From the IMG/VR virus record IMGVR_UViG_3300028423_000363, positions 1 to 62,770 of that record: a DNA stretch of 62,770 nucleotides, one strand, 5' to 3'. The position numbers and the translations under genes were made by a program. Of the stretch, positions 2,636 to 62,745 are shown in pieces (within the stretch, counting starts at the first letter, position 1; the number at the start of each line of letters is the position of its first letter). A model generated the notes under the pieces. That model was not told the origin of the DNA. It saw only the letters and a program-made list of their open reading frames with translations, and ran no database searches. The DNA comes from a virus. Its lineage: Duplodnaviria > Caudoviricetes.

Positions 2636-2710
2636 CATTTAAAGTGTTGTGTATATGAGTGTTATTAACTACTTTTGTCAAGTAAAATGATCAATAAACT
2701 TGACATTAAT

Positions 2711-2838
2711 AACGGATTACGGCTATGAAGCGTTGCCGAGTAAAACGCTTGAACTTTTAAATTATAAACAAAATGGATATACACCCGCAACACACAAATA
2801 TAGCACAGGGCAAAGGCAATGATTTTATAGCCGATGTT
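2711..2838. repeat. attC-like site (long loop containing the start of ORF 2773)
   Basis: AAC-GGATTA-CGGCTATGAAGCGTTGCC (2720-2737) ... GGCAATGATTTTATAGCCG (2815-2833)-AT-GTT. Confidence 0.7.
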
Positions 2839-3021
2839 ATAAACTGCCCTGATGAATTAGAGCCAGTTTTGGCACAAATAGAACATATAAACGATTTAGG
2901 TAAATCTAAATGGTACGAGGTAGTTTACTATGACGGGAACTGGCGTTCTTATAGTGGAAGCAATACTTTTGATGATGGTGAAAAGGTTTTAAAATGGAAA
3001 TACTGTAAGGGTTGTTTATAA
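2773..3021 (+). CDS. Cassette-encoded hypothetical protein spanning the crossover GTT in frame
   Basis: 82 aa. GTT 2836 is codon 22 (Val). The stop TAA lies within the closing TAAC core. Confidence 0.7.
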   Translation: MDIHPQHTNIAQGKGNDFIADVINCPDELEPVLAQIEHINDLGKSKWYEVVYYDGNWRSYSGSNTFDDGEKVLKWKYCKGCL

Positions 3022-3312
3022 CGTAAAAGTATAACAGTAGTAACAGAATATAAACTTTAAAATTAAAATAAAATGGCAAAACCAATTTTTATAGTAGAAT
3101 CACCAATTATGCAAACACAAGAAGAGTTTGTAAACACACAAAAAGTATTAGAAAATAAATTAAATGACTACCACGTTTTGATAGTACAAACCAATGTAGA
3201 TGATTTTAATTTTAAAGTTTTTTACGATAAAGACTTTACAGAAATTGAACTTAATGATTTAAGAAAATACATTAAAGAAAAATTAAAGTAGTTATTACTG
3301 TTATGCATTGTT
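3020..3312. repeat. attC-like site with a complete ORF in its loop
   Basis: AAC-GTAAAA-GTATAACAGTAGTAAC (3029-3044) ... GTTATTACTGTTATGC (3291-3306)-ATT-GTT. Arms are identical to those at 55275-55562. Confidence 0.75.
3073..3291 (+). CDS. Hypothetical protein inside the attC-like loop
   Basis: 72 aa with an A-rich leader. The stop TAG overlaps the first base of the right arm. Confidence 0.75.
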   Translation: MAKPIFIVESPIMQTQEEFVNTQKVLENKLNDYHVLIVQTNVDDFNFKVFYDKDFTEIELNDLRKYIKEKLK

Positions 3313-3359
3313 ACTTGCAGTGCGCCTATTAAGTGTAATTGTTTGGCGCATTGCTATGT

Positions 3360-3425
3360 AACATTTCGGCGATATGATTTGCGCCTTTATGGATTGAGTG
3401 ATTAGCGTAAATTATATTGCGTGTT
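3360..3425. repeat. attC-like site (66 bp)
   Basis: AAC-ATTTCG-GCGATATGATTTGCGC-20 nt loop-GCGTAAATTATATTGC-GT-GTT. Confidence 0.75.
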
Positions 3426-3460
3426 ATATGCCGATAGGGAACTGTAAAAATTAAGAAGAT

Positions 3461-3703
3461 ATGAAAACATTTAAAGTAAATACTGTGCAAGATATGATTG
3501 ACTGCACGAATGAAAACAACTTAGATAATTTTTTAGTAGATTTAAAAAAGATTATTGAAGCAGCTCATTATTTTAGAGAGTTAACTGATAATATGGCTGA
3601 GAAACAAAACATTTCTAAAAAATTAACGGAACTGAAAAGCAAAGGATTTGAATGGATTGACGATAGCAAACACGAAATAACTATCGAATTAAGCAGTAAG
3701 TAA
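3461..3703 (+). CDS. Cassette-encoded hypothetical protein
   Basis: 80 aa, between GTTATATGC (3423) and GCATATAAC (3720). Confidence 0.75.
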   Translation: MKTFKVNTVQDMIDCTNENNLDNFLVDLKKIIEAAHYFRELTDNMAEKQNISKKLTELKSKGFEWIDDSKHEITIELSSK

Positions 3704-3855
3704 TTTTTATTGCATATAACACGTGATAACATCATATATTGAACTAAAACATTATTAATCATGTAGTTACATAATATAAGTAGTTCGGAAGTGAACTTTT
3801 TATTTTTTAATTAAGTGATGAAGAGTTTGTTTTCGAACTACACTAAAATAAGATT

Positions 3856-32110: not shown

Positions 32111-32581
32111 CTACCTTCTAGCACTTGAACAGTTTTCAGAAAAAGTAACCCACCTTATGTTTCCTTTTTCGTATCCCTTATCTGCATCTATTCTGTCTAT
32201 TGAAGGGCTCTTTTTTAAATCGTATCCGCTTTCTTTCCACTTTTTAAATATATATTTATAATCATCATTATTTAATGACCACTCATAAAAATCTTCTTTA
32301 TCTAAAATAGAAAGACCTTTGTATAAATGATTTTTATTTTTCAAAACACCGCCTACTCTTGATTTCATATTTCTGTAAGTTCTAACCAACTTTCCTTTAA
32401 TTGTTTTTTCATATTTTTTAGTAATTATATTATCATTATTCAATCTTCTTTTTCTTTGCTTGTCATTATTACATTTTCTGCAATAATAATCATAGCCTCT
32501 TTTGTTTTTAGGTCTTTTTAAAAACTCAGAAACCTCCTTTTCTTTTAAGCAACAGTTGCACTTCATCTTTATTTTTTCCAT
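32111..32581 (-). CDS. HNH-like (His-Me finger) endonuclease with N-terminal Zn ribbon
   Basis: CNCC...CRKC, then SIDRID..KGY..GNIRWVT..EN. Confidence 0.65.
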   Translation of the reverse strand: MEKIKMKCNCCLKEKEVSEFLKRPKNKRGYDYYCRKCNNDKQRKRRLNNDNIITKKYEKTIKGKLVRTYRNMKSRVGGVLKNKNHLYKGLSILDKEDFYEWSLNNDDYKYIFKKWKESGYDLKKSPSIDRIDADKGYEKGNIRWVTFSENCSSARR

Positions 32582-33864
32582 TTGAAATAATAAGGGTTTA
32601 ATGTGTATGTATTCTCTTTGAAATTTATAGTATAAAAACCTGATATACCTTTTTTAAAATTAGTCTGAACCCAATTTGAAGAAGGACTAAAAGCAGGAAA
32701 ATTCCAATATTTAAACTTTTGAGATGTAGAATTGTCAAAAATATCTTGATGACTATCTCCTTTTATAAAGTATATATCGTATTTGTGTAAATCATGCTCG
32801 CTTATATAATTGTCTATCTTTTCTATTTGTTTGTTATCTAAAATAGGCTTAAAACCAAACTTCAAATTAACGCCGTCTTTTCCGTGAGTAGCAATAAAAC
32901 ATTTATCGTTATATATGTAGTGATTTATAAACTTCCTTTGTATCTTAAACTCTACATTACCTAACACGTGTTCTAAGTATGTTTTTAAAGGTTTGTTTAC
33001 TACATAGGCAAAACTCCCAGAGTGATTATCATCCACTATATTTACAACGTCAATTTGCTTATAAACAGAAGACAACTCAGAGAACAGCCAAACCTTAAAG
33101 TCAAAAGCAACATCAAAAGCTTCTTCGTTTGTCATATTCTGTGGCAGGTGATGTCCTTTTCTGACAGTTTCTCCATCCCAACCATCTAAATAATCTCCTA
33201 AATCAAAAAATACTAAATTATCATTTGTTTTTGTATTTATAATATGATTCAATAATATTTGACCTCTCCTGAATAATTCATCCTTGTTCCACTCTCCACC
33301 AAAAAGAGAGAAGCCATTAGGATTAGGGTTCATTCCGATATGAACATCTGTAATACAACATAAATCAAAATCACTTTTTTCAATATCTTTTTTTTCAAAC
33401 TTAGGAAGATTTGATTTTTCAGATATAAGTTCTTTTACTTTTTCTACAACTTTGTTTTCGTAATCTAAATCTCCTTCGACCACATTCTCCTTAAAAACTA
33501 TATTATAAAAAGGAGTTCCTGTATGAGACACTAATTTATAAGATGATATATCTTTTCTAGGTAAGGTGTAATGTTCGCAATATTCGTCAATATCCATCAT
33601 GTGTCCTTGTTCATTCCAGGCACTTAATACAAATGTTTTATCTTGTTTGTAATTATTTGACGAAGTATCTGATTTAACTTCTTCTTCATTTACAGGTATT
33701 TCTTTTACGTCAACGCTGTCTAAAGACTCTAATACTCCGCTAATTTTTCTTCTTATAGTATCAGTGTACTTAATTCCGTGAAGTTTACAGTAAGCTCTAG
33801 CGGTTTGACTTTTGTTCTTCTCTTCTTCGTAAAGATTTGATAACTGCTTTAAATTGTAATTCAT
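32569..33864 (-). CDS. Calcineurin-like metallophosphoesterase
   Basis: TDVHIG, LGDYLDG, DNH, THG and GDSH metal-binding motifs. Confidence 0.75.
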   Translation of the reverse strand: MNYNLKQLSNLYEEEKNKSQTARAYCKLHGIKYTDTIRRKISGVLESLDSVDVKEIPVNEEEVKSDTSSNNYKQDKTFVLSAWNEQGHMMDIDEYCEHYTLPRKDISSYKLVSHTGTPFYNIVFKENVVEGDLDYENKVVEKVKELISEKSNLPKFEKKDIEKSDFDLCCITDVHIGMNPNPNGFSLFGGEWNKDELFRRGQILLNHIINTKTNDNLVFFDLGDYLDGWDGETVRKGHHLPQNMTNEEAFDVAFDFKVWLFSELSSVYKQIDVVNIVDDNHSGSFAYVVNKPLKTYLEHVLGNVEFKIQRKFINHYIYNDKCFIATHGKDGVNLKFGFKPILDNKQIEKIDNYISEHDLHKYDIYFIKGDSHQDIFDNSTSQKFKYWNFPAFSPSSNWVQTNFKKGISGFYTINFKENTYTLNPYYFKWKK

Positions 33865-48310: not shown

Positions 48311-50537
48311 TATTTTAAAACAAATACTAACTTTTAAAAAAAATAAAAATGGAAAATCTAAAAAAACAATATCGCAAAAAATATGGTTATTCACCATCTG
48401 ATAATGAAATTTTAAATCTTTATTTTCAAGGTAACTTAAACCTAACAAACAAGCAGGAAAATGAAATAATAAAACATTTTAATCTTTAAAAATAAAAAAC
48501 ATGAGTGAGTTAATAGACAAAATAAATCAAAAAATAGACTTGGGTGGTTTAATATCTAGAGGTAGATATTATAAAAGATTTTGTGATGACAAAAATTATG
48601 TAGATTTTTATCATAACTACAAACCAAACGAAAAAAAATTAAGAGAAAATTACATAGACTTAATAAAATACTTTTTAGAAGACAAAGAGTTAACTAAAAA
48701 TATTGAGAGTTATCTAAAGTATAAAGAACCTTATTTTAAAGAGCAAAGAAAAAAAACAACAAACAATATGTACACTTATATTGTTGTAGATGAATTGCTA
48801 ACAATTATAAGAAAATTCAAATCTAAACAGATAGATAAAAACCTAAACTTTTGTAACTAAAATACACTAAACAAGTTACAAAAAACAACAACTTTAAAAC
48901 TAAAATTATGCATAATTCAGAAGTAAGCAAAAAAGCATTTTACAAATTGTTTGACAGCTCAGACGATTTACAATTAACAGAAAATAAAGAAACTTATATA
49001 ATGGAGAGTTATTATAATGTTGACTTAGACGTGAGCGGAGAGGCTATTTATAACCATGTCAGCTCAGTATGGCAATATTATATCGTAGATATTAACCTTT
49101 AAAACATTTAAGTTATGAAAGTAGAATTTTATAAAATAGCAACTCACAAAGGAATTGATAAACAAGGTATTGAAAGCCCATTTAAAGAATATATTTATAA
49201 TATTAGATTGGTAGGTAAAGACTATTTTAATAAGCCATATGAGTCCGATTTTTATCAATATTGTACAGTACAAAAAAACGCAAAAGACGCTAAAAAAGAT
49301 ATTGAACAAAGATTAATTAATAACGGCGTATTTGATGCTGCACTTGATGGCCAGGATATAAACCATTTAATGTAAAAAAAATATTAACTTTAAAACCTTA
49401 GACAAATGACAATTTACGATTTCAACCAGTATGATAATGACGTTGTAGAATATTTCAGAGAAAATTATCCTGACTGGGATAATGTTAAAAAACAAGACTT
49501 GCAAATTTGCTGCAATGGTACTCTTTTTGTGGGTAATACAGAATTTAAAACACCTATCAAACTCAGTGATTACGAAATTTAAAACCTAAAACAAAATGGA
49601 AATAACAAAATGCACACATGTAACAGCTACAGAAAAGAAACATTTAAAAGCATTTTTAAATAGCGGAAAAACAGACGCAAAAATAAATAGAAAATTTTAT
49701 TCTATTATCTCAGGAACACCTCAAGCAGATAAATTTCTATATAAAATTAGAATAACCACACCAATGAAGGATGATTATGGCAATAAGAAATTAGACACGC
49801 AAACAATAGAAGTTTTAAATTAAAAACATAAAACAAATGAAAATGAATACTGAAAAAATAATTTACAATAATTTAAGCATAAGAAAAATCATATATCGTT
49901 TACCTATAAACATGAGTAAAATACATAAAAAAAGATACATAAATAATTGCATTGAAGTTTATAAAAATGAATCTAAAAATTTTAATTTAGACTTATGTCA
50001 ATCATTAAGAAACGAGAATTTTAATTTAATTAAAAATTATTTATATAATAAATAAAAACCTAAAACAATGAGCAAACGAAAAAGAATAATAAAGACATTT
50101 AAAAGCCACAATAATAAAATGATGGCTTTGACAAAAAAAATAAACGACCGACGCAAATTGCTAACAAAACAAGAGCAAGTAAAGTTTAATATAAAACTAG
50201 AGTTTAAACACCCTGAAATATTTTCGTAATGAAACCAGAAGAAAAAGATTTATTTTTTAATCAAGAACAATTACCTCAAAACGTAAAGCAAATAGTTTTC
50301 GAAATGAGTGAAGTAGAAATTAACGAGGGATTTGATTATAAAAAATGTAACAAATATCAATCACAACTAGAAAAACTAGGCTACACTTTTGACTATGAAC
50401 TAGACGCAACGCCTTACAATTTACAAAAAATAAAACAATGAAACCAGTAACAAAAACACTTAACACAGGTTTAAAAGTAACACAAACCTACTGCAAGAAG
50501 AAACAAACCGTAATAATAACCGTAAATAAATAAACAA

Positions 50538-50885
50538 ATGGAAACTTTTTTAAACACACTACACACAGACATAGACTTAACTTACATCTATAATCAAGAC
50601 ATGACCTTCGAAGAGTTTGAAGAGGCTGTCACAGAATACATAAGAGGTGAAGAAATTATATATTATTATAAAGCTATGGAGTTATTGCAAGAGCACGACC
50701 CAAGCCTTAATCATAGCTTAGAATTAGCCAACGAATTAGGTTACACAACGGACAATATAAATAGTGAATTGTTAGCAACCTTATTATATCAAGACATATT
50801 ACAAGATGAATGGTTTGAAATAAGAGACGAAGTACAAGAAAAGTTTGAAGAACTTGAAGAAGAAGAACTAAACGAAACATTTTAA
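50538..50885 (+). CDS. Highly acidic early protein, Ocr-like DNA-mimic candidate
   Basis: 115 aa, very D/E-rich, with EEIIYYYKAMELL motif and acidic tail. Confidence 0.5.
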   Translation: METFLNTLHTDIDLTYIYNQDMTFEEFEEAVTEYIRGEEIIYYYKAMELLQEHDPSLNHSLELANELGYTTDNINSELLATLLYQDILQDEWFEIRDEVQEKFEELEEEELNETF

Positions 50886-51432
50886 AAGACAAGACAATGA
50901 AAACATTTGAATTACAACCACTAAAAAGAAAATCCTTTTATGGCAAAGCTCAAGTATTACAAACGCCTGAAGGACATTTATACTTAGACAGCTACAACAC
51001 TAGAGTAGCAACCTACACAAAGGAAGGACATTTCGAGGTAACAAAAGACGAAAGCCTTTTAACTAATACAACACTTCGACATATAAGAGCTTTTCAGAAC
51101 TATGTAGGACTAAAACCACAAACAAAACAAGAACTTTTAAAATCTTAGACAAATGACAATACAATTAGCAAAAACAAACAAAGAAACAATAGGAGTTTAT
51201 AGAGACCACTCCGAAAAAATAGGACATATAAAGCCTAGCGATGTTGCTCAGGCTTTTGATTGGAATGGTGCAGACGTACTCAACTTCTTTGCCGAAACAT
51301 TAGTTGAATGTAACTACCATACAGAAGCTATACAAATAAAAGAAATGATAAAGTTAAATAACAAAACACAATTTGATTTTAGACCATCACTTTAAACTTA
51401 AACATTTTAACATAAACTAAAAACCTAGACAA

Positions 51433-51942
51433 ATGAAAAAATTATTTTTAATCTCAGTAATATTAATTACTGCAATCGCAAAAGGACAAACACAAACCAA
51501 CAGACTAGATTTAATCTTACTACAAGATATTAAACTAGCTATGCAAGGACACGAAAAAACTAGTAAAGATAGTTTTACTACAGATATTAGACTTTCTGCA
51601 AGGCTAAACAGTACACAAAATTACACAGGTCATTGGTTCTTAGCTCCAGAGATAGAATACGCAGATCTCAACATTAGATTTATTAGATATAGCGCAAACA
51701 TAGGTTATAAGTTTAATAGATTTCATGATGAAATATCTTTAAGTATATCAGGTGGTTATGGTTTAATTGATAGAGAGGGACAAGCTTATCAATCAATAGG
51801 TATAGATGTTTTCTTAGAATACGAAATAACTAAACGATTATCTTTAACATTAAATAACCAAACACTAGAGAGAAAAGATGTTAAGAGTAAAGACATTGTT
51901 AATTCTTTTTTCTTAGGTGTAAACATTAAACTATTCAATTAA
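51433..51942 (+). CDS. Signal-peptide outer-membrane beta-barrel-like protein
   Basis: MKKLFLISVILITAIAKG signal, alternating beta strands (YSANIGYKF, IGIDVFLEY), terminal FFLGVNIKLFN. Confidence 0.6.
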   Translation: MKKLFLISVILITAIAKGQTQTNRLDLILLQDIKLAMQGHEKTSKDSFTTDIRLSARLNSTQNYTGHWFLAPEIEYADLNIRFIRYSANIGYKFNRFHDEISLSISGGYGLIDREGQAYQSIGIDVFLEYEITKRLSLTLNNQTLERKDVKSKDIVNSFFLGVNIKLFN

Positions 51943-53793
51943 TAATTAAATCTTAGACAAATGGCAATTTTAGAATTAAACAAAGAACAATTAAACAACT
52001 ACTTAGAGAAATTAGTATTAACAAGATTCGAATATCTACATAACTTAGAAAGTTTTATATCTGAAGATATAGGTCTAAGTATAAAGTTACAAAGAAAAGA
52101 AGCAGACCTTGACACTTTAAGTGACTTTTGCTTAATAGGTAATATTAATATAAATGGTGCTGACTTAGCTTTTATAGATATATACTACTTGATAGATAAT
52201 AAATTAAACTATTTAATTACAGAAGTAAACGTAGAATATACTTAAATCTTAGACAAATGAAATTAGACTATTCAAAAATCGAAAATGTAGAAGTAGACGG
52301 AATAAATGGTTGGGATTATCCTGACTTTTCAGACGCATACATAGCAAGTGCTGACTACAACGGCAGAGGAATGACCGAAGAAGAGTTAAACATTATTAAC
52401 GAAGACTCTCAGTTTGTTTTTGAGCAAGTAGAAAGCCATCTATTTTAGTATGCAAGACAATAAAAAGTTTAGGTTAGCAGTAGCAATAATATACTTAACT
52501 GTGTTTTTATTGTTACTGTCTATAACCTTATCGCAATTCAAGCTAACATCTAATATCAACATAACAATGTTATTAGGTTCTCTGACAATAATATCATTTA
52601 TCCTTTTTAGGAAAGCAGTATATCAATATTTAAACAAAGATTAATTATGGATTTAGACGTAACACATAATATTAAAATATGCGACTTCAAGCATATTAAT
52701 GAAGCCATCTATGAAATAGAGATAGGCGAGACAATTCACGATTGTAGAAAATTTACAGGCTTCGTCAATAATCAAAAAGTAAGAGGTTTAATAACTAAAG
52801 ACAATAAAAAATTACACTCAATAACTTATGAGCAGTCATATAGATAACGTACTAAGACTCGTTAATAAAACAAAATCAAAAATAAAAGTTGATAGTAATA
52901 AACGCTTACAATGGAAGTTATCAGCGTATAAAGTTTTACTTGAATTAACGACGTGGGACATAAAGTGTGAAGAGCTTAACTATTTACTTGACGGAGACTT
53001 CGACAATTTACACGAAGCAAAAACAATATCAATAGGTAAGATAAGTTACACAGATTCAGTGTTATATTTCAAAACATTCTTGTATGAAGGAGAACTTTTC
53101 GTTATATTTACCACCTCAAGAAATGATTTAGGTGTGATATTTAAACCAAATAGCGATAAATATTATAACCTGCCTTTGGTTTACTGTTTAGTAGATGACA
53201 AAGTTTACGATAATATATACGACTTTGAACACATTACAGATCACAAAGGAAACAATATAGATATTAAAAACTCAAAACTAATTATTACAGACTTTACTTA
53301 TGGATAGAGACGAATATTTCGAAGAAGAATACAGAAATAAAGAACAAGACCTTAGACTTAAAGAAATGGAATTAGAAGAGCAAATGTACTTTCACGAATT
53401 TAAAAACGAAGGCAATTTCTTTGGAAGACAAAAGTTCACTAAAAAATACTAAAAAATGGAACTATTTAAGAACACAATTAAACAGGCGATCGAGAAGTAC
53501 GACTTTACCAATCAAATTGAGCATTACGACCAGAAAATATTTGAGTTAAGCATCGGTGATATGCCAATGGAAATCTTAAACGAATCTGTAGGTAACGACA
53601 CGCTTATTTTGGAGTTGATATTTGACTTCAGAGGAGAAATAGAGGGCGATGATGTTAGGGTTTGTGAAGACTTATATTTAAGAGCTGTTAGCCTGTTTTT
53701 ATTTAACAATGGCGAAGAGCTTAAATTTGACACTGACTTGTTTTATGATGATGTCAAAGATTCTTTAATTCAATCTATGAATGATTTTGTAAT

Positions 53794-54135
53794 GTGGCAA
53801 TAAAAAATAAAAAAATGACAGAAGCAGATAAAATATTAAATAAGCATTTAACTGATAATGAAGCTAAATATATAGCTGATAAAAGATTTCTTTACGACAG
53901 TTTGATAAACGCAATAAATGAAGCATTAGCTACATCTCGTGTTAGCAGTAGCTTATTAGAAATAACACTTGAAGAATGGGAACACACTTGTGACGATGGC
54001 TGCTGTTATTCTTACGGTGAAGATATATATCTAAATGGTGAGAAATTAGACGAGCAAAATGCTGAAGATAGTAGGAATGCATTAACAGCAGTACTTACAA
54101 GGTTAGGTTATGACGTTGAAATAAATTACCGCTAA
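53794..54135 (+). CDS. Hypothetical protein reading in frame into the first cassette of array 2
   Basis: GTT 53941 is an in-frame Val (ATSRVSSS); stop lies in GCTAAC. Likely start ATG 53815. Confidence 0.7.
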   Translation: MAIKNKKMTEADKILNKHLTDNEAKYIADKRFLYDSLINAINEALATSRVSSSLLEITLEEWEHTCDDGCCYSYGEDIYLNGEKLDEQNAEDSRNALTAVLTRLGYDVEINYR

Positions 54136-54200
54136 CTGGTGGCGTATAAGATTTGCGCCTTTTCAGCCGAGTAAGTTCAGCGTAAATTTTATGCGCTGTT
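54134..54200. repeat. attC-like site (67 bp)
   Basis: AAC-TGGTG-GCGTATAAGATTTGCGC-21 nt-GCGTAAATTTTATGCGC-T-GTT. Confidence 0.78.
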
Positions 54201-54249
54201 ATGCACTGGCACGGATTAATAAATAATAACTTAAATTCAACTTAATAAA

Positions 54250-54543
54250 ATGAAAAAGCCTACAACAGAGTGTTCAATTTCGGTACAAAAAAAATCAGAA
54301 ATAACTCGTGTATTTTTAGAAAGTCAAGGATGGAAATTGATTGAAGAAAAACCACTATTTGAATCTTTTGAGCATACTAAAAATCCTTACTTAAAATGCT
54401 CTATTGGATTGTACGGTGGTTTTTCTGTAGTAGAATTACACTGGTGCAACAAAACGCCTGAAAGAGAATTTTCGACAATCAATAACGAACTAACTATTAA
54501 TGATTATCACACAATCATTCGCCTGTTAAATGTACGGGTGTAG
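54250..54543 (+). CDS. Cassette-encoded hypothetical protein
   Basis: 97 aa, between GTTATGCACTGGCAC and GTGCTTGTGCATAAC. Confidence 0.75.
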   Translation: MKKPTTECSISVQKKSEITRVFLESQGWKLIEEKPLFESFEHTKNPYLKCSIGLYGGFSVVELHWCNKTPEREFSTINNELTINDYHTIIRLLNVRV

Positions 54544-54554
54544 TGCTTGTGCAT

Positions 54555-54620
54555 AACATTCCAGTGCTATGAAAAGTGCCTTTAGGGAATAAGTGATTAG
54601 CATTTTTTATAGCACGTGTT
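54555..54620. repeat. attC-like site (66 bp)
   Basis: AAC-ATTCCA-GTGCTATGAAAAGTGC-20 nt-GCATTTTTTATAGCAC-GT-GTT. Confidence 0.78.
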
Positions 54621-54667
54621 AGCTGACGAAGTGAACAGTAAAATATTAATGGATTAAAAAAAGAATT

Positions 54668-55258
54668 ATGAAAAATTGGACTGGAAATAAAAACAGTATT
54701 TATAAAACTTTAGGTTCGAGTAACCACACAGAAAAAAGCCGTGAGCAACATGACTATTATGCAACCGACCCAAAAGCAGCCGAATTACTTTTGGAATTAG
54801 AAAGCTTTGAAAATGTATTAGAGCCTTCTTGTGGTGAGGGACATTTAAGTAAAGTTTTTGTTGATGCAGGAATTAATGTTACAAGTAGCGACTTAATTGA
54901 TAGAAATTACGGAACTCAAAAAAGTTTTTTTGACTACGAAAAATGGAATGGCGATATAGTTACAAACCCACCTTACAAATATGGGCTTGAATTTGTAGAA
55001 CACGCTTTGAAAATAATACCTAATGGAAATAAAGTTGCGATGTTTTTAAAACTGCAATTTCTTGAAGGTAAGAAACGAAAAAAACTTTTTGTAGATAAAC
55101 CACCTAAAAAACTTTACGTATCTAGTAGTAGGCTGCTTTGTGCAAAAAACGCTGATTTTGAAGGTATGCGAAAAGGTGGCGGTAGTGCCGTTGCTTACGG
55201 CTGGTTTGTTTGGCAAAAAGGTTTTAAAGGACTTTCGCAAATAGAATGGTTTAATTAA
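54668..55258 (+). CDS. Cassette-borne small DNA amino-methyltransferase (probably N6-adenine)
   Basis: DYYATDP, SAM-binding LEPSCGEG, catalytic VTNPPY. Confidence 0.8.
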   Translation: MKNWTGNKNSIYKTLGSSNHTEKSREQHDYYATDPKAAELLLELESFENVLEPSCGEGHLSKVFVDAGINVTSSDLIDRNYGTQKSFFDYEKWNGDIVTNPPYKYGLEFVEHALKIIPNGNKVAMFLKLQFLEGKKRKKLFVDKPPKKLYVSSSRLLCAKNADFEGMRKGGGSAVAYGWFVWQKGFKGLSQIEWFN

Positions 55259-55274
55259 TATTTTATTGCAGGCT

Positions 55275-55562
55275 AACGTAAAAGTATAACAGTAGTAACG
55301 GAAATATTAATAACTAAATTTTTTAAATATGAAAGCAAAACTAATATATAATGGTGAAGAAACTGCAGAAACACAAGAAGTTGATTTACCACAAATACCA
55401 AGGGTAGGCGACGGTTTTTGTGTTTTAATAGACAATGTAGAAAAGCGAGTATTTGCTTCTTGTGTGGTGGAAAGCATAGACTGGTGGATTGAAAATGGTA
55501 AACTGCGAAATGTAGAAATTTATTTAAAAGACGAAGAATAGTTATTACTGTTATGCATTGTT
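55275..55562. repeat. attC-like site with a complete ORF in its loop
   Basis: Arms identical to 3020-3312. Confidence 0.75.
55329..55541 (+). CDS. Hypothetical protein inside the attC-like loop
   Basis: 70 aa (PQIPRVGD motif); stop TAG overlaps the right arm. Confidence 0.75.
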   Translation: MKAKLIYNGEETAETQEVDLPQIPRVGDGFCVLIDNVEKRVFASCVVESIDWWIENGKLRNVEIYLKDEE

Positions 55563-55670
55563 ATATATCTGGTGGTGGCTAGTAAGACCTTAGCGGATGA
55601 TGAATGCACTTGATGCGATTCTGGTTTGGCGAAAATATGGGTTTATTAACCTGTGCCACCACTTGTATAT

Positions 55671-55734
55671 AACTGGTGGCGTATAAAATAAGCCAGCGCA
55701 ACACTGGTTAATTCGGCTTGTTTTATGCGCTGTT
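55671..55734. repeat. attC-like site (64 bp)
   Basis: AAC-TGGTG-GCGTATAAAATAAGCC-20 nt-GGCTTGTTTTATGCGC-T-GTT. Confidence 0.78.
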
Positions 55735-55796
55735 GTAAAGCGTTTTTCAATTCAAATTTTTTAAATTCAAATATTAATCAATTAAATAAAATAAAA

Positions 55797-56369
55797 ATGA
55801 AAAAATTATTAAAATCATTAGACAAAAAAATATCAGTTAGACAAGCTGGTACAGGAACAATTTATGTTTCTTTTGACGGTAAAAAAATAAGAATTGCTAA
55901 TCATGAACCTAATAGATCAATGAAAAGACAAAGAGGTTCAGCAGATCTTGAAATCTACACTCACGATTTAGTAGGTAAAGAAATAAATTCTAAGTATGAT
56001 GTTGTAGAAAAAGTAGCAGATTTTTTAAATATTGAAATTAAAGGACCTACAAAGTCAGCTATTACACGTTTTAGAAATAAAGAATTAGAAAAATCAAAAA
56101 AACTTGCTAGAATAGAAATTGAAAATGAAAAGGAAATGAAAGAAATACAAGATCGAATTAAAAAGTTTTATTCTAAAATAAAAAAGCTGACTAAAGGCAA
56201 AGAAAAAGAACTTAAACAATTATATGCTGAAGCTGAAAAATATGGCGATTTAGGCTCTAATGGATCAAAAAGAAGAAAAAGACGTACATCATATTTTAAA
56301 AGAGAATTCAAAAATAGGTTTGGAATAGAAGCAACGCCTTCAGATGTTAAAAATGCAATTAATTCTTAA
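55797..56369 (+). CDS. Cassette-encoded basic hypothetical protein
   Basis: Likely start MKKLL at 55797; TGTIYV...KIRIANH motif; flanked by GTTGTAAAGC/GCTTTACAAC. Confidence 0.7.
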   Translation: MKKLLKSLDKKISVRQAGTGTIYVSFDGKKIRIANHEPNRSMKRQRGSADLEIYTHDLVGKEINSKYDVVEKVADFLNIEIKGPTKSAITRFRNKELEKSKKLARIEIENEKEMKEIQDRIKKFYSKIKKLTKGKEKELKQLYAEAEKYGDLGSNGSKRRKRRTSYFKREFKNRFGIEATPSDVKNAINS

Positions 56370-56413
56370 TGCTTTACAACACGTAATAACAACACATAAA
56401 CACTTAAACCCTT

Positions 56414-56686
56414 ATGAATACTACAAAACAAAAAAATAAAGAGTTTGAAAATGAACTATTTTATGATAGTTTCAAAACAAAAAAGTTAAGAAGTGAACTA
56501 TCAAAGGAAGCTAAGACTGCTATTGAAATCAGGAAAGAAAACACAACTCAAAAAGATGTAGCCGATACCTTAGAAATACCACTAACAAAGATTAAACAAG
56601 TTGAGAATGGCACTTGCAAAGATATAGATGCTATTCTTAATTACATAGGTTATCTCAATTACAAATCAATAATAATTATTAACTGA
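56414..56686 (+). CDS. XRE-family HTH protein
   Basis: TQKDVADTLEIPLTKIKQVENG. Confidence 0.7.
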   Translation: MNTTKQKNKEFENELFYDSFKTKKLRSELSKEAKTAIEIRKENTTQKDVADTLEIPLTKIKQVENGTCKDIDAILNYIGYLNYKSIIIIN

Positions 56687-56691
56687 TTTTT

Positions 56692-56722
56692 AAAAAAAAG
56701 AGAGGCGTTTAAACCTCTCTTT
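56692..56722. terminator. Terminator between convergent genes
   Basis: AAAAAAAAGAGAGG-CGTTTAAA-CCTCTCTTT. Confidence 0.75.
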
Positions 56723-56728
56723 AAATAT

Positions 56729-57463
56729 TTATTTTAACTTAGTCTTCAGAAACTTAGCCAACTTTTGACCTTCTTTGGTTTTCATATAAGACTTTAAAGT
56801 TTCTTCGACATCACTGTTAAAAGGAACTTCTAAAACTAAATCTTCACCTGCATAAATTTTATCAGACTTCTTAGTTAACAGTCCGTGAGACAAGGCATCA
56901 CTAGCTAAAGCTAACAAACTTAAATCTTCGTCATTAGCTAATTCAATTATAGTCTCAGGGTCTTTCTTAGCTTCAACTAATAAATCTCTTTTAAGTTCTG
57001 TCGATGTAAGTTTCTTAGACTTACCTCCGAATACAGCTAAACCTAATGCGGATAATTCATCTGTAGAACAATCGAAGATACATTTCTTAGCGTTAAATTC
57101 TAACTCTTCACGATCAAACTCTTCCGAAGCTTTTGCTTCAGGGTCAAACTCTTCAAACAACAATCCGTTGTGAGGATGCTTAGACAAGAACTCTTGAAGA
57201 ACCATGTTGGTTTTCGGAACTTTTAAAACTCCGTCAATCATAGCAACACGACCTAATATAGACTCGCCTTGTTGCTCATCCATAAAAATTGATTGTTGAT
57301 TAGTACAATAGCGAAGACTTCTAGGATTACCTTTACTGTCAACCCATTGCAAAGGATTGTTTTGAGTGTGTGCTGTTCTAATTGTTAAGGAAGCACTTCT
57401 TTTCCCTTTCTGAACGTATGTGCGATCTTTACGCTCTACGCTCGTTTTCTTTTTTACTGGCAT
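56729..57463 (-). CDS. Conserved flavobacterial-phage protein (isolated minus-strand gene with own promoter)
   Basis: KDRTY...LRYCTNQQSIFMDEQ...LQEFL..HP...ELKRDLL; promoter box at 57492. Confidence 0.6.
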   Translation of the reverse strand: MPVKKKTSVERKDRTYVQKGKRSASLTIRTAHTQNNPLQWVDSKGNPRSLRYCTNQQSIFMDEQQGESILGRVAMIDGVLKVPKTNMVLQEFLSKHPHNGLLFEEFDPEAKASEEFDREELEFNAKKCIFDCSTDELSALGLAVFGGKSKKLTSTELKRDLLVEAKKDPETIIELANDEDLSLLALASDALSHGLLTKKSDKIYAGEDLVLEVPFNSDVEETLKSYMKTKEGQKLAKFLKTKLK

Positions 57464-57506
57464 AATTAATTTAATTTATTTAATATAAATACAAAGATAC
57501 AAAATA

Positions 57507-57722
57507 ATGAAAACAAAAATCAGAACACCAGAGCAACAAAAGATTGCTCAATTAAATCAACAAAACGTAATAATTAAAAACGAAAACAAAAAACTAATAA
57601 AAATTGCACTTCACTATAAGCATAAATCAGAAAAATTGCATAACGAGTTAATCAAATATAAATCTATAAGTGGTTTTTATAAGTTTTTTAACATAAAATC
57701 TTGGTTTAACAAGTATAAATAA
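57507..57722 (+). CDS. Hypothetical coiled-coil protein
   Basis: 71-aa ORF. Confidence 0.5.
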   Translation: MKTKIRTPEQQKIAQLNQQNVIIKNENKKLIKIALHYKHKSEKLHNELIKYKSISGFYKFFNIKSWFNKYK

Positions 57723-57754
57723 TTATTTTTGTAATCAATTAAATACATATATAT

Positions 57755-58048
57755 ATGCAAATTTTAAATTTTAGTATCAATTTAGACAAGATTGACAAAA
57801 GTAAAATCGTGAAAGGTCAAAAAGGTAAGTATTACAATATTACTGCCTTTGTATCTGACGAGGAAGATCAATTCGGAAACAACGTTTCTGTAATTACATC
57901 TCAAACTAAAGAAGAGAGAGAGGCTAAAGAAGAGAGAACTTACTTAGGTAATGGTAAGGTGGCTTACGATTCTAACGGAGGAGGCCCTACTTCTAATGAT
58001 TCAAACTCTTCAAACGAGGAAGATGAAGATGATGATTTACCTTTTTAG
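57755..58048 (+). CDS. Single-stranded DNA-binding protein-like
   Basis: SINLDKIDK...KGKY...DQFGN...YLGNGK and acidic tail DDDLPF. Confidence 0.7.
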   Translation: MQILNFSINLDKIDKSKIVKGQKGKYYNITAFVSDEEDQFGNNVSVITSQTKEEREAKEERTYLGNGKVAYDSNGGGPTSNDSNSSNEEDEDDDLPF

Positions 58049-58067
58049 TCAAAGAGAAACAACAACT

Positions 58068-58093
58068 AAGGAGGTGTAATAGCCTCCTTTTTT
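58068..58093 (+). terminator. Intrinsic terminator
   Basis: AAGGAGG-TGTAATAG-CCTCCTTTTTT. Confidence 0.75.
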
Positions 58094-58116
58094 ATTAATC
58101 TTTAAAACAAATAACA

Positions 58117-58740
58117 ATGGCAAAAGAAAAAATGAATCTTAGACAAAAATTATCAGCTATACAAAATGAGCTGAAAGCACCTAAAAATCAAAGAAACAAT
58201 TTCGGGAAGTACAACTATCGTTCAGCAGAAGATATATTAGAGGCTGCTAAACCTTTGTGCTACAAATACAATACGTGCTTAGTAGTTAGTGATGAGTTAG
58301 TTAATATAGGCGAAAGGTATTATATAAACGCAGAAGCTGTTCTTTTCGATAATGAATCTGATAACACTATTTCTGCCAATGGATATGCCAGAGAGGAAGA
58401 AAATAAGAAGGGTATGGACGGTAGCCAAATAACAGGTGCTTCGTCATCGTACTCACGAAAATACGCTCTTAATGGTCTGTTTAATATTGACGACACTAAA
58501 GATAGTGATGCGACAAATGACGGTAGTAAAGAAGTAAAGAAGCCTTCGAGTAAACCAAAACAAAAGACAGCTACAGAAGATGATAAAAAACAGAAGTTAA
58601 TCAAGGCTTTCTCAGACAATAAAGAAAAGACCATATCGGCTATGAAGTCTAAAGGTCAGAAGTTGTCAAGAGCTCAAGCTAACGTCTTAGTTTCGGAAAA
58701 TATTGTAACTAAAGAAGAGATTGCTGATGTGGTCAAGTAA
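58117..58740 (+). CDS. ERF-family ssDNA annealing protein
   Basis: LKAPKNQ.N.FGKYNYRSAEDIL...QITGASSSYSRKYALNGLF.IDDTKD.D. Confidence 0.85.
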   Translation: MAKEKMNLRQKLSAIQNELKAPKNQRNNFGKYNYRSAEDILEAAKPLCYKYNTCLVVSDELVNIGERYYINAEAVLFDNESDNTISANGYAREEENKKGMDGSQITGASSSYSRKYALNGLFNIDDTKDSDATNDGSKEVKKPSSKPKQKTATEDDKKQKLIKAFSDNKEKTISAMKSKGQKLSRAQANVLVSENIVTKEEIADVVK

Positions 58741-59111
58741 GAATATAAGAGGTTTGTTCTGTATAATAGAACTACTACTTACGGCAGTTAGCGTAACTAT
58801 CGGAATGATAGGAATAATATTAAGTTCGAAATCCTTGCTAATCATTGCAGGGATTTCTTTTTTAACTTCATTATTAATAAACACTATAATTAAAAGATAT
58901 GACGAAAGACAAGAAAGAGTACAACGTGAGAGAAAAGTTAAACAATGGTAGAAAATATGTTCACGTTAAAATAGAATATAATGGCGAAACTTACCTTGAT
59001 AAAGGTTTTAAAACAGTAGAGGAAGCGACTAAAATTGCAGATATTACTATTCTTAAAAACATGTTACCTTATGAAACGAAGAGATTTAAACCTGTAAACA
59101 AAAACAAGTAG
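58721..59111 (+). other. Two small ORFs (membrane protein 58721-58951; 58899-59111 with AP2-like F.T.EEA)
   Basis: ORF track; hydrophobic pair of helices in the first. Confidence 0.45.
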
Positions 59112-59372
59112 TAAAGTATTACTTTACAACTGAAATCAAGTTATTAAGTATTACTTAAATACTGAAATTATGATATATTGGATAAGCAAAGAAAAAGTTA
59201 GTGAAACAAAAGAAAATCTTTGGCACGTTTGGGAGTCAGGCATAACTCATTCAAAATGCATAGATGCTTTTAAAGACGAGTCTTGTGCAGAAGACTATTG
59301 TAAATTTTTAAACGAAAATGCAATAAGTAAAGCCTTAGTGTAAATAAGTAAATATAGAAAAAACTTAAAACA

Positions 59373-60098
59373 ATGGATAGATTAGTATTAATAGATTGTG
59401 ATGGTCTTCTGTACAAGAACATAGAGGACTTAGACGAATACAAAGATAGGATTGACGAAACAATATCAGCTATTATAAACAAGGTAAACGCTACGCATTA
59501 CAAATGTTTCTTAGAAGTTAGAGGTAATCAAACTTTCAGAAAGGTTATGTATAATGACTACAAGGCAAAAAGACCAAGTAGAAATTATCATAATAAAGAA
59601 GAGATTAGAGAGTATTTAATGGAGTGTTATGACCCTTATATCAGTGCAGGTGTTGAATCAGATGATAGTATCATATCTACATATAAGTATGTTTCTGAAG
59701 AGCATCCCTTTACAGATTGCTATGTTGCAGGAAACGATAAAGACTATCTTACACATCCTATAAAATATATAGACTTATATCATGGTCGTTGGCTTTTGAC
59801 AGAGAATATAAGTGAAGAAGATGCTAAATACAACTTCGTTTATCAAATGCTTCGAGGAGATGTTTCTGATAATGTTCCTGGACTAAAGGGAATAGGAGAC
59901 GCTAAAGCTAAAACTTTATTAAAAGATTTACCTGTTAATAATTTCAGTTATAAACGTTTATTGTTATCTTTGTATAAGAAGCAATATAAAAGCTATTTAA
60001 GAGCTAAAAAAGAGATTGAGGTAAGTTATAACCTTTTACGAATTAGAAACAATGTAAGGTTCTGCAAATCCTTCAACGAAGTAGTTTTCGAAGATTAG
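59373..60098 (+). CDS. 5'-3' exonuclease (T7 gp6 / RNase H-like)
   Basis: LIDCDG, FRK....YKAKR, ESDD, DKD and GDVSDNVPGLKGIG H3TH motif. Confidence 0.88.
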   Translation: MDRLVLIDCDGLLYKNIEDLDEYKDRIDETISAIINKVNATHYKCFLEVRGNQTFRKVMYNDYKAKRPSRNYHNKEEIREYLMECYDPYISAGVESDDSIISTYKYVSEEHPFTDCYVAGNDKDYLTHPIKYIDLYHGRWLLTENISEEDAKYNFVYQMLRGDVSDNVPGLKGIGDAKAKTLLKDLPVNNFSYKRLLLSLYKKQYKSYLRAKKEIEVSYNLLRIRNNVRFCKSFNEVVFED

Positions 60099-61989: not shown

Positions 61990-62745
61990 ATGTATGTATA
62001 CCTTATGAAATGTTCTATTTATTATAAAATAGGATATTCAAAAAATCCAAAAAACAGACTAAAAACTGTAAAAACACACAATCCTTTAGATGTTAAACTT
62101 CTCGCGACGTTAAAAACTAAAAAAAGTAGGAGTTTAGAAAAAGAACTTCACAATTTGTTTTTGCCGAAAAACTCAAGGAGAGAATGGTTTGAGTTGCATT
62201 ATCAAGATTTATTAAAGTTGAAGATTGATTATGGATTTAATTTTCTTGAACCAATAGAATACATTACCGACGACTACAAAGAAGACGAATATACTTTAGG
62301 TAAGATAAAGGAGATAAGAATTGATAACGCTAAATTAGACGCTCTTAAAACATATTTCGAGAATTTATTCGAAACGGAAATAGTCGATAACATACCTATG
62401 AAAAAATGTTCTTTGAACTTTGATTCAGAGTTAATAATAAAAGCTATTGATAATCTTTTTGAACAAGGTAAGGATGCTGATACCTGTTATAAACTTATAT
62501 ACACGGTTTGCTGCAATCTTCAGGAATCAAAAGAAAATCCAGGCAGGTATTTTGCGAAAGTAGTTAGAGCTTTGCTTTACAAGCAATATGGATATGAGTT
62601 AATGGATAAGGATTTTGACTACATATCTAATAATTTCAACAAAGACTCAAATGTTAGTAAAGCTATAAGGGAGATCAACTCAAGAAAGTTTTATCTAAAT
62701 ATTACTGAGTTTCTTATTTTTATTAATGATAAATTTATTATATAA
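61990..62745 (+). CDS. T5orf172/GIY-YIG-like domain protein
   Basis: YVYLM....YKIGYSKNP..RL......NP...LEKELH..F......EWFEL. Confidence 0.8.
   Translation: MYVYLMKCSIYYKIGYSKNPKNRLKTVKTHNPLDVKLLATLKTKKSRSLEKELHNLFLPKNSRREWFELHYQDLLKLKIDYGFNFLEPIEYITDDYKEDEYTLGKIKEIRIDNAKLDALKTYFENLFETEIVDNIPMKKCSLNFDSELIIKAIDNLFEQGKDADTCYKLIYTVCCNLQESKENPGRYFAKVVRALLYKQYGYELMDKDFDYISNNFNKDSNVSKAIREINSRKFYLNITEFLIFINDKFII

Follow-up and report, generated by a model that had tools for sequence, protein, structure and literature searches.

It is an open question how the cassettes of integrons arise, and another whether cassettes recombine as folded strands anywhere beyond the IntI lineage. Both are raised by the window analysed here (the whole stretch of DNA, a complete genome of 62,770 bp), since it belongs to a lytic marine flavobacterial phage, of a host phylum almost without integrons, and yet displays the full split-site footprint, with natural relatives that differ at a conserved triplet. 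The footprint concerns two arrays of small genes, referred to as array 1 and array 2. The initial annotation had described array 2 as five units opening with GTT and closing with AAC, together with three hairpins of 64-67 nt; all of them are present, and the GTT.../...AAC end pairs were confirmed in 5/5 units. The parts of array 2 are arranged as follows:

53941..54136, plus strand: unit 1, with 10-nt inverted ends containing one A.C mismatch (perfect run of 6).
54134..54200, plus strand: hairpin site E2a, running from AAC to GTT (stem of 17-18 bp and loop of 21 nt, with spacers of 4-5 nt behind AAC and 0-1 nt before GTT).
54198..54557, plus strand: cassette body holding a 97-aa ORF of no family (54250-54543), with 9-nt inverted ends GTTATGCAC / GTGCATAAC.
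54555..54620, plus strand: hairpin site E2b (stem of 16 bp and loop of 20 nt, with spacers of 6 nt on the 5' side and 2 nt on the 3' side).
54618..55277, plus strand: cassette body with the DNA methyltransferase gene 54668-55258 and 6-nt inverted ends GTTAGC / GCTAAC.
55274..55563, plus strand: split site (fourth junction), a 14-bp stem around ORF 55329-55541 (70 aa).
55560..55673, plus strand: ORF-less unit, a 113-nt GTT...AAC hairpin (8 bp, internal loop, 8 bp).
55671..55734, plus strand: hairpin site E2c (stem of 16-17 bp and loop of 20 nt, with spacers of 4-5 nt on the 5' side and 0-1 nt on the 3' side).
55732..56380, plus strand: last cassette body, holding a 190-aa ORF of no clear family (55797-56369), with 10-nt inverted ends GTTGTAAAGC / GCTTTACAAC.
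56378..56394, plus strand: right end, where ACGTAATAACA... comes directly after the last AAC and there is no hairpin.

The fourth junction is not a short hairpin, and the halves of its split site measure 26 nt on the left (55274-55299) and 25 nt on the right (55539-55563). The hairpin-less motif following the final AAC is common to both arrays (in array 1 it is located at 3718), and the right end of array 2 represents a candidate primary insertion site. The methyltransferase belongs to phrog_799 (E 1.2e-60), its best phage homologues being found in Bacillus, Staphylococcus, and Listeria phages. The homologues of the 97-aa ORF (in three other phage contigs, L034-L036) and those of the methyltransferase cassette gene (L043-L047) are embedded in tight operons with no such sites, and a search of IMG/VR disclosed no relative of the 190-aa ORF.

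The ends of unit 1 span just the C-terminal 64 codons of ORF 53815-54135, so that the start of the unit falls inside the ORF. This end pair is free of mismatch in one relative (L083), and in L084 and L085 the homologues are stand-alone ORFs starting at the unit-1 boundary. ORF 53815-54135 and, in array 1, ORF 2773-3021 may represent front and back halves of small proteins joined by insertion. The status of unit 1 as a present-day cassette is doubtful, since in this region the contigs of the relatives are unbroken and hold the ORF still joined to the upstream flank. The variable region of array 2 starts at E2a (54134).

The three hairpins of array 2 possess stems of 16-18 bp and loops of 20-21 nt, with asymmetric spacers (4-6 nt on the 5' side vs. 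0-2 nt on the 3' side). Together with the hairpin site of array 1 they make up four sites with an attC-type layout, i.e., AAC and GTT triplets, two helices, and an unpaired asymmetric spacer. No bulged bases occur in the stems, each of which contains 2-4 G.T pairs, all of them G.U wobbles on the coding strand. The sites had been described as unlike proteobacterial attC, and this agrees with the asymmetry of the spacers and with the G.T wobbles found where attC has extrahelical bases. All the sites of the window (4/4) lie on the plus (coding) strand and none on the minus strand; 20 Markov-simulated windows yielded 0-5 matches per strand at a stem of at least 11. When the four sites were turned into a covariance model, it retrieved the same four in the window (E 7e-14 to 3e-18), the next match having an E of 0.63. 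Over these four sequences, 96.3% of the stem cells are paired and 9/17 pairs have changed on both sides, a covariation reached by 0/500 shuffles.

When folded as DNA, the hairpins reach energies between -10 and -12 kcal/mol, with z between -1.5 and -3.3, the plus strand folding better than the minus strand in 4/4 sites; RNA folding gives them a much greater stability, with energies between -25 and -30 kcal/mol and z between -3.2 and -5.0. Because of this greater stability and of the G.T pairs present in each hairpin, the fold itself could serve at least as naturally in RNA. It might be supposed that the sites are RNA elements only, that is, processing or stability structures in the 5'-UTRs or intergenic regions of a polycistronic early transcript, with gene exchange being incidental. 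The location of all the sites and all the wobbles on the coding strand, the stronger RNA folds, and the distance of 40-70 nt that separates the sites from the start codons lying 3' of them would agree with this idea, which we nevertheless regard as improbable: a search of the hairpins in Rfam (itself without an attC family) matched no family, no T-run follows the stems, and a helix of 6-10 bp closing a loop of 300-650 nt is unlikely to matter in RNA. Moreover, such a role predicts neither that the DNA homology of relatives breaks at AAC nor that one hairpin family precedes unrelated genes in phages of different host genera. A promoter scan with the consensus sigma-70, as distinct from Bacteroidota-type promoters, gave 8 sigma-70-like sites vs. 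14.8 expected.

Each unit carries ends complementary to one another. In array 2, the runs between cognate starts and ends measure 6-10 (6, 9, 6, 8, and 10 per unit), whereas over both arrays non-cognate start/end pairs gave 3-7 and four in-situ pairs, i.e., the two ends of one hairpin site, gave 3-4; the cognate pairs set against these controls have runs of 9, 10, 9, 8, and 8. The ends of a unit are complementary beyond the triplets and those of an in-situ site are not, which is the split-site footprint; the footprint of integron cassettes recognized in the initial annotation is thus borne out. As a background, 29/1282 GTT of the window (2.3%) have a complementary AAC end of at least 9 within 40-1500 nt; the array pairs differ from this background in that both anchors are fixed beforehand by the hairpins. 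The same comparison was performed family-wide on 60 sites from the window and 30 loci (L062 and L074, second copies of Cellulophaga phage phi12:1 and Polaribacter phage P12002L, having been dropped). Cognate runs of 8-11 were found in 7/21 two-site intervals, as against 1.6% of the non-cognate pairs and 1/60 in-situ pairs; the 21 intervals include two near-duplicates, neither of them among the seven with long runs. A chance origin of the arrays is ruled out by the end pairing, the simulated windows, the covariance model, and the family-wide count.

The second array of the genome repeats this organization:

2661..3735, plus strand: array 1, in which the order of the parts matches that of array 2.
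3360-3425, plus strand: hairpin site, the fourth of the AAC-spacer-stem-loop-stem-GTT type.
ORF 3461-3703, plus strand: last cassette of array 1, with 9-nt inverted ends.

The order is an ORF-less hairpin unit, ORF82, a split site with ORF72, an ORF-less hairpin unit, the hairpin site, and the cassette. E2b shares 72% identity with the array-1 site at 3359-3434 (repeat family D7). The halves of the array-1 split site (3019-3313) are letter-for-letter those of 55274-55563, and the enclosed ORF is different (72 aa). The split-site ORFs have AAC as their left boundary and GTT as their right one, between identical flanks of 25-26 nt; for them, homologous exchange fits better.

The same site architecture is carried by the Polaribacter phages P12002L and P12002S, and it also occurs in the Cellulophaga phage phi12:1, the Tenacibaculum phage JQ, and 27 IMG/VR loci. 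In P12002L the sites lie on the coding strand; their stems are rich in G.T, their spacers measure 4-6 vs. 0-3 nt, and the cassettes have private ends of 8 nt. Site families with no sequence relationship in their stems and loops still have the AAC/GTT triplets and the asymmetry of the spacers in common, and some loops hold the start of a gene or a whole ORF. The Cellulophaga phage phi19:1 gave background-level matches only, with no convincing sites, and the site model R1 returned nothing convincing on the loci of 14 relatives. A megablast search of positions 50000-60000 vs. 50,697 phage records retrieved no close relative, and the 25-nt left half of the split site had 0 exact matches in IMG/VR. 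A 16-mer of the site matched 10 IMG/VR stretches, a number no larger than expected by chance according to our estimate; these matches were rejected, the one in L010 lying in unrelated, apparently protein-coding repeats.

The initial annotation had placed the crossover at G|TT and had proposed both a search of related phages for the same sites with an adjacent recombinase and an alignment of relatives. The genomes of P12002L and P12002S consist of blocks 99.2-99.9% identical, broken by replaced or extra gene units. Six of the ten block boundaries are located at most 2 nt from AAC (background 11%); as for the remaining ones, two sit 11-14 nt inside a hairpin arm and two are unrelated to AAC. The variable nnnn before AAC belongs to the left unit and the hairpin to the right one. 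One indel is flanked by a direct repeat of 14 nt and another by one of 26 nt. On the coding strand, the homology of relatives breaks at the AAC lying 5' of each hairpin rather than at GTT; therefore, the cassette corresponds to hairpin + gene + ...AAC, each hairpin going with the gene behind it. One P12002L hairpin is 85% identical in phi12:1, where it precedes a methyltransferase cassette with 8-nt private ends, and the phi12:1 methyltransferase ORF shares 91% nucleotide identity with a P12002L/S methyltransferase placed behind another hairpin. Judging from these sequences, cassettes appear to have moved between phage genera.

Close relatives of the phage itself are represented by contigs from four runs of one marine metagenome study, and the break data comprise the 32/165 pieces and 24/98 loose ends listed. 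These relatives cover both flanks of array 2, with zero depth over the 97-aa and 190-aa ORFs, where lack of coverage in the four runs stands for absence in contigs only. Among the pieces listed, some end at 54136 in 3/4 runs and others start at 56378 in 3/4 runs, with a different sequence before it; one relative keeps the 113-nt unit and then diverges, with an unlike continuation of 255 nt directly after 55673, and another unlike continuation is found before 55273. The positions 54136, 55673, and 56378 each coincide exactly with an AAC of the array. A break at 53454, recorded in all four runs among the same pieces, is a plain gene boundary and not an AAC. No circles or excision products were seen in the pieces listed. 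The joints 54621 -> 55306 and 55302-55334 -> 55539 were rejected as excision products, their sides being 21-30 nt and the intervening letters unread; they may be other copies of the repeats.

As for the enzyme, no tyrosine recombinase had been noticed in the genome, and this holds for its complete sequence: in six frames, PF00589 and PF02899 were unmatched, the positive controls matching in 14/14 and 12/14 genomes, respectively. The complete genome was also without matches to PF00239 (serine recombinase) and PF01797 (Y1 transposase). PF00589 is absent from P12002L, P12002S, JQ, phi12:1, and phi19:1. Only 4/27 IMG/VR records with a P12002-type site have a PF00589 match, 8-14.5 kb from the site; no array or site lies beside these matches, and no Xer-type gene was found beside an array. 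Hence, the search of related phages found the same sites but no adjoining recombinase. A Pfam analysis of ten neighbouring ORFs disclosed a GIY-YIG-like T5orf172 protein and a weak endonuclease I match, with no recombinase. A recombinase acting on the arrays might be supplied by the host; the searches of the phages and of the site-bearing IMG/VR records retrieved no candidate for it.

The phage does encode the annealing protein Erf (58117-58740) and an exonuclease (59373-60098), and the arrays could be shaped by homologous or microhomology shuffling, with the hairpins acting as short repeats at which Erf, the exonuclease, or replication slippage swap modules and with no site-specific enzyme involved. 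The negative recombinase searches would be explained in this way, as would the identical 25-26 nt flanks around the two different split-site ORFs, the direct repeats of the P12002L/S indels, and the two boundaries inside a hairpin arm; an analogous proposal is found in the literature on the PeSL motifs of T4-type phages (PMC2839356, PMC4122927). However, shuffling of this kind would not create or maintain mutually complementary ends private to each cassette. In addition, the right boundaries fall exactly before AAC, the sequences immediately upstream being dissimilar, and are not scattered over a repeat of 50-60 nt, and the triplets and spacer asymmetry persist where stems and loops are unrelated. 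For the arrays as a whole, we consider this explanation unlikely.

Overall, both arrays are probably rows of mobile cassettes belonging to an integron-like system of site-specific recombination that is common in Flavobacteriaceae phages. The site architecture, stem covariation, strand bias, private ends, recombinase absence, and AAC breaks in relatives are observed, and the following scheme might account for them. Folding of the junction on the coding strand would give three elements: the paired ...AAC/GTT... box, an asymmetric spacer left unpaired, and a second helix of 16-18 bp; G.T wobbles would permit the folding of this strand only, standing in for the extrahelical bases of classical attC. 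A recombinase not encoded by the phage would cut and rejoin at the 5' AAC of the folded strand, releasing a mobile unit made up of hairpin + GTTnnnn + gene + nnnnAA. The unit would close into a circle and its two ends would pair, and each gene would therefore have private inverted ends. The single-stranded DNA substrate, the circular intermediate, and the exact bond cleaved are all inferred, and the enzyme would come either from the host or from an unrecognized phage protein.

It is also conceivable, although we advance this only tentatively, that Flavobacteriaceae phages share an integron-like gene capture run by a non-IntI recombinase, with a coding-strand fold, a choice of strand by wobbles, the site placed before the gene, and insertion inside reading frames that can join protein halves, and that anti-restriction and other accessory genes pass by this as a main route among lytic marine phages of different host genera. 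The enzyme would then be a Xer-type tyrosine recombinase of the host or an unrecognized phage protein. If a non-IntI enzyme is indeed at work, current surveys underestimate how widely integron-like capture has evolved or spread, and phages too keep libraries of cassettes, including methyltransferases against restriction. The same site family is found in cultured phage-host pairs (P12002L/S and Polaribacter, JQ and Tenacibaculum, phi12:1 and Cellulophaga), which makes the question testable at the bench.

Among the systems that might be compared with these arrays, the Xer-dependent elements include phages integrating as folded single strands at dif and the pdif modules of Acinetobacter, on which the literature includes PMC7399989 and PMC9226527. 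In these elements, a housekeeping tyrosine recombinase of the host acts in trans on short sites of an element devoid of a recombinase, and in one known case a folded single strand is the substrate. The IS200/IS605 elements, including the palindrome-associated ones, rely on a Y1 HUH transposase and on subterminal hairpins at both ends; unlike them, the phage units have one hairpin and mutually complementary ends, which are not required there, and the Y1 family is unmatched in the genome. PeSLs are promoter-terminator composites exchanged by homologous recombination, and we know of no AAC/GTT boxes or private complementary ends in them. As described for T4-type phages (PMC2839356, PMC4122927), small accessory genes occupy plastic regions with conserved intergenic stem-loops, and the arrays resemble these cassettes in that related phages gain, lose, and replace genes at the stem-loop motifs.

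The closest precedent is the work of Qi et al. 2023 (Front Microbiol, PMC9892861), which reports integrase-less attC clusters in virulent phages, including P12002L, and the recombination of a P12002L site by IntI1 in E. coli. In its account, two P12002L sites are predicted, divergent in direction, and treated as ordinary integron attC. As in those phage CALINs, the arrays analysed here are rows of accessory genes, including methyltransferases, with AAC...GTT hairpins in between and no phage integrase. In its passages on P12002L, PMC9892861 makes no mention of a fold on the coding strand, of a crossover at the 5' AAC, of cassettes that begin with the hairpin, of ORFs inside loops, or of the spread of the site family. 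The distinct Bacteroidota-type system suggested by the initial annotation is supported as a family within Flavobacteriaceae phages, the kind itself being already known from the attC clusters of P12002L (PMC9892861).

By its architecture, array 2 would qualify as a CALIN (at least 2 attC model matches within 4 kb, no integrase). One could then take the arrays for debris of an ordinary bacterial IntI integron, still served by a host IntI, since the P12002L sites were classed as attC, with one recombined by IntI1, and the triplets and two-helix layout match attC. This appears very improbable: according to the text of the IntegronFinder 2.0 survey (PMC9024848), integrons are nearly absent from Bacteroidetes, which harbor In0 elements and one complete integron in Salinibacter. 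A gapped 21-base pattern of the window-type site gave just two matches in 185,579 species genomes; both were rejected, the site model scoring neither and the one in L038 lying inside a coding gene. In addition, with respect to the genes both the strand that folds and the side of the crossover are the opposite of the classical ones, extrahelical bases are missing, and some loops hold whole ORFs.

The phage arrays nevertheless share with classical integrons, as outlined in PMC8946536 and as generally known, the imperfect palindromes folding into two helices with a central spacer left unpaired, the invariant AAC/GTT at the crossover box, the split-site complementary cassette ends, the single orientation of the array, and the site families homogenized within a genome. 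They differ in having no IntI and no recognized attI by an integrase or Pc promoter, and in stems that use G.T wobbles instead of extrahelical bases, with loops that may hold a gene start or an ORF. Finally, the phage arrays fold the coding strand, so that each site lies upstream of its gene, and the crossover would take place at the 5' AAC, whereas the classical systems fold the opposite strand, with the site downstream of the gene and the crossover at G|TT on the coding strand.

The 62,770-bp IMG/VR virus record is complete (100% by CheckV). The primase-helicase of the window shows 62.5% identity with Tenacibaculum phage JQ, and the protein encoded by ORF 32569-33864 shows 47-59% identity with those of Cellulophaga phages; on the basis of these resemblances, the phage is assigned to marine Flavobacteriaceae hosts. 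Both cassette arrays fall within a single long run of early and replication genes on the + strand, with array 1 right behind the helicase. The same early region harbors a 251-aa protein (61990-62745) with an N-terminal T5orf172/MUG113 (GIY-YIG-like) nuclease domain, possibly a homing-type endonuclease; 72-nt tandem repeat units, 65-73% alike, are found at 30297-30656 within a - strand ORF among large - strand ORFs. The features of the arrays are the following:

2661-3735, + strand: array 1, with a hairpin at 3360-3425
3019-3313, in array 1: split site
53941-56398, + strand: array 2, with hairpins at 54134-54200, 54555-54620 and 55671-55734
53941-54136, in array 2: unit 1, starting inside ORF 53815-54135
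54250-54543, in array 2: 97-aa cassette ORF
54668-55258, in array 2: methyltransferase cassette gene
55274-55563, in array 2: split site
55797-56369, in array 2: 190-aa cassette ORF

Each site consists of AAC, a longer spacer, a stem-loop-stem, a short spacer and GTT. All five pairs of GTT/AAC unit ends that the initial annotation had described in array 2 were found, with perfect complementary runs (GTT/AAC included) of 6 (10 with one mismatch), 9, 6, 8 and 10, and the array 1 cassette ends share a run of 9; the runs were 3-7 in non-cognate pairs and 3-4 in in-situ pairs, i.e., the two ends of one hairpin site. In the window, 29 of 1282 GTT have a complementary partner of at least 9 within 1.5 kb, and chance is ruled out because the hairpins fix both anchors of each pair beforehand. 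Scanning for a descriptor composed of AAC, a spacer, a stem of at least 11 (G.T permitted), a loop, a spacer and GTT gave six + strand matches. Four of these are the real sites, with stems of 16-18 bp; of the other two, one repeats the 55671 site in another register and one is a weak 13-bp match within an HTH gene. The - strand of the window gave zero matches and 20 simulated windows 0-5. A covariance model built from the four sites (seven had been proposed) recovers only these in the window; 96.3% of stem cells are paired and both partners have changed in 9 of 17 stem pairs, values drawn from four sequences only. The Rfam search of the sites returned zero family matches. The parts of array 1 follow one another as they do in the right-hand half of array 2, and both arrays close with the same hairpin-less motif after the final AAC (3718 and 56378, respectively). 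Directly downstream of array 1, a 62-nt hairpin (3780-3841, + strand only) has a 29-bp stem with 8 G.T pairs and one mismatch, and lacks AAC/GTT boxes.

Contigs of relatives, about 90-97% like the window, came from a single marine plankton metagenome study, in which four runs contained them. They span 52800-54136 and 56378-57500, with zero depth across the 97-aa and 190-aa ORFs. Among the pieces listed, ends at 54136 occur in at least three of the four runs, and starts at 56378 also in at least three; the former position is the C of the AAC preceding the first hairpin, the latter the initial A of the final AAC. In one run, two different sequences unlike the window precede 56378. One contig retains the ORF-less unit and departs from the window right behind 55673, and in another the divergence lies before 55273. 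This places the variable region at 54137-56377, with AAC at both sides; the breaks (54136, 56378 and behind 55673) are at AAC, rather than at GTT as the crossover at G|TT had implied. The break at 53454, present in all four runs, does not fit this reading, since it is a plain stop/start boundary of two small ORFs, without AAC or hairpin; this divergence is an ordinary module exchange at a gene boundary adjoining the array. A junction made of AAC, four bases and GTTGCG, without the second helix, lies between genes in the relative L083 (7010-7070) and at a loose end behind window position 55673 in run X1; it may be a minimal version of the site.

The same site family is present in cultured phages. 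Qi et al. 2023 (PMC9892861) describe phage attC clusters, one of them, without integrase, in Polaribacter phage P12002L, and the activity of IntI1 on one P12002L site. The coding strand of P12002L carries sites built like those of the window, and its genome shares with P12002S blocks 99.2-99.9% identical, broken by added or replaced genes. Of the ten internal block boundaries, six lie at most 2 nt from AAC (background chance, 11%), two another 11-14 nt on, in the hairpin arm, and the last two bear no relation to AAC. Four of the six AAC cases were confirmed by an automatic walker, which indels misled at the other two. At the right-hand boundaries, homology starts exactly at (T)AAC, immediately preceded by unlike sequence; therefore, the private nnnn goes with the left unit and the hairpin with the right one. 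A P12002L hairpin (L040 38020-38105) recurs at 85% identity in Cellulophaga phage phi12:1, where it precedes a methyltransferase cassette whose private ends measure 8 nt (L042 6001-6915). The ORF of this cassette is 91% identical to a P12002L/S methyltransferase placed behind a different hairpin; Polaribacter and Cellulophaga phages have both elements in common, combined differently. JQ has one such site behind the helicase, matching the position of array 1, and the P12002-type 18-base loop motif occurs in 27 IMG/VR loci, many with several sites. In a sample of 60 sites, drawn from the window together with 30 loci (two duplicate records left out), cognate runs of 8-11 were found in 7 of 21 intervals between two sites; a run of 8 was reached by only 1.6% of the non-cognate pairs and by one in-situ pair of 60. 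The low-value intervals probably hold undetected sites, like the window interval 54618-55673.

Concerning the gene content, the product of one array 2 cassette is a DNA methyltransferase (phrog_799, E 1.2e-60), and the family search gave no clear match for the remaining cassette genes. For the methyltransferase and for ORF82 (array 1), the closest homologues among phages belong to those of Firmicutes and enterobacteria, and in other viral contigs the homologues of two cassette genes are arranged in ordinary operons without such hairpin sites. The cassettes are accessory genes of mixed origin set into a local cassette frame. Some elements fit an integron-like reading less neatly. Two ORFs of 70-72 aa, one per array, are enclosed by a 14-bp stem, with 25-26 nt halves identical between the arrays and the right boundary at GTT; these split-site ORFs could have been moved by homologous exchange via Erf. 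Moreover, unit 1 of array 2 and the array 1 pair 2836/3022 (9 nt) begin inside ORFs.

The first ORF of each array contains an internal GTTnnnnnn complementary to its own terminal nnnnnnAAC (2836-3022 and 53941-54136), perfectly over 9 nt in the former and over 10 nt with one mismatch in the latter (perfect in L083). For both proteins, the alignment with homologues does not begin before the internal GTT point; in the homologue-bearing loci L084 and L085, the domain after this point is a stand-alone ORF beginning there, and in L083 (6641-7377) two adjacent genes have a common front module up to the internal point and differ beyond. Judging from these alignments, it looks as if halves of proteins were joined in frame at cassette boundaries.

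As anticipated, no tyrosine recombinase was detected (PF00589 and PF02899, six frames of the window), and serine recombinase (PF00239) and Y1 transposase (PF01797) also gave zero matches in six frames. The window encodes Erf and an exonuclease, and neighbouring ORFs include the GIY-YIG-like T5orf172 protein and a weak endonuclease I match. PF00589 was not found in P12002L, P12002S, JQ, phi12:1 and phi19:1; it matches in 4 of the 27 site-bearing IMG/VR records (2 of 7 among those at least 90% complete), 8-14.5 kb from the site and adjoining no array. The proposed search of related phages yielded the sites, but no recombinase beside them. A host IntI is an unlikely source of the enzyme, since integrons are described as nearly absent from Bacteroidetes in PMC9024848. 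Within the collection covered, full-text searches gave no study of a cassette system in Bacteroidota or phages that is driven by an enzyme other than IntI.

Every non-Watson-Crick stem pair is G.T on the coding strand, and DNA folding favors the + over the - strand in all four sites (-11.4 vs. -10.2, -11.6 vs. -9.3, -12.4 vs. -9.6 and -10.2 vs. -3.7 kcal/mol). The many G.T pairs, together with the lack of bulged bases, suggest that the wobbles, which are A.C mismatches on the other strand, might provide strand choice. Folding as RNA is far stronger than as DNA (-25 to -30 kcal/mol, z -3.2 to -5.0), so that the hairpins may also have an RNA role.

The data fit an integron logic read on the opposite strand. 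On the - strand, each unit has the order GTTnnnn, antisense gene, nnnnAAC, hairpin and G|TT, and the position of attI would be taken by the hairpin-less motif 56378-56394. It is the coding strand that folds, and the cut would fall at its 5' AAC, in analogy to the bond cleaved by IntI.

Array 2 is real and integron-like, its cassettes being joined by sites of a phage-borne family, and the phage encodes no recognised recombinase. What the initial annotation had proposed stands as to the array itself, but not as to the crossover at G|TT; the features of classical integrons are those described in PMC8946536. Phage attC clusters, including that of P12002L, were already known from PMC9892861; the difference here is that both the strand and the site-gene order are reversed with respect to classical integrons.
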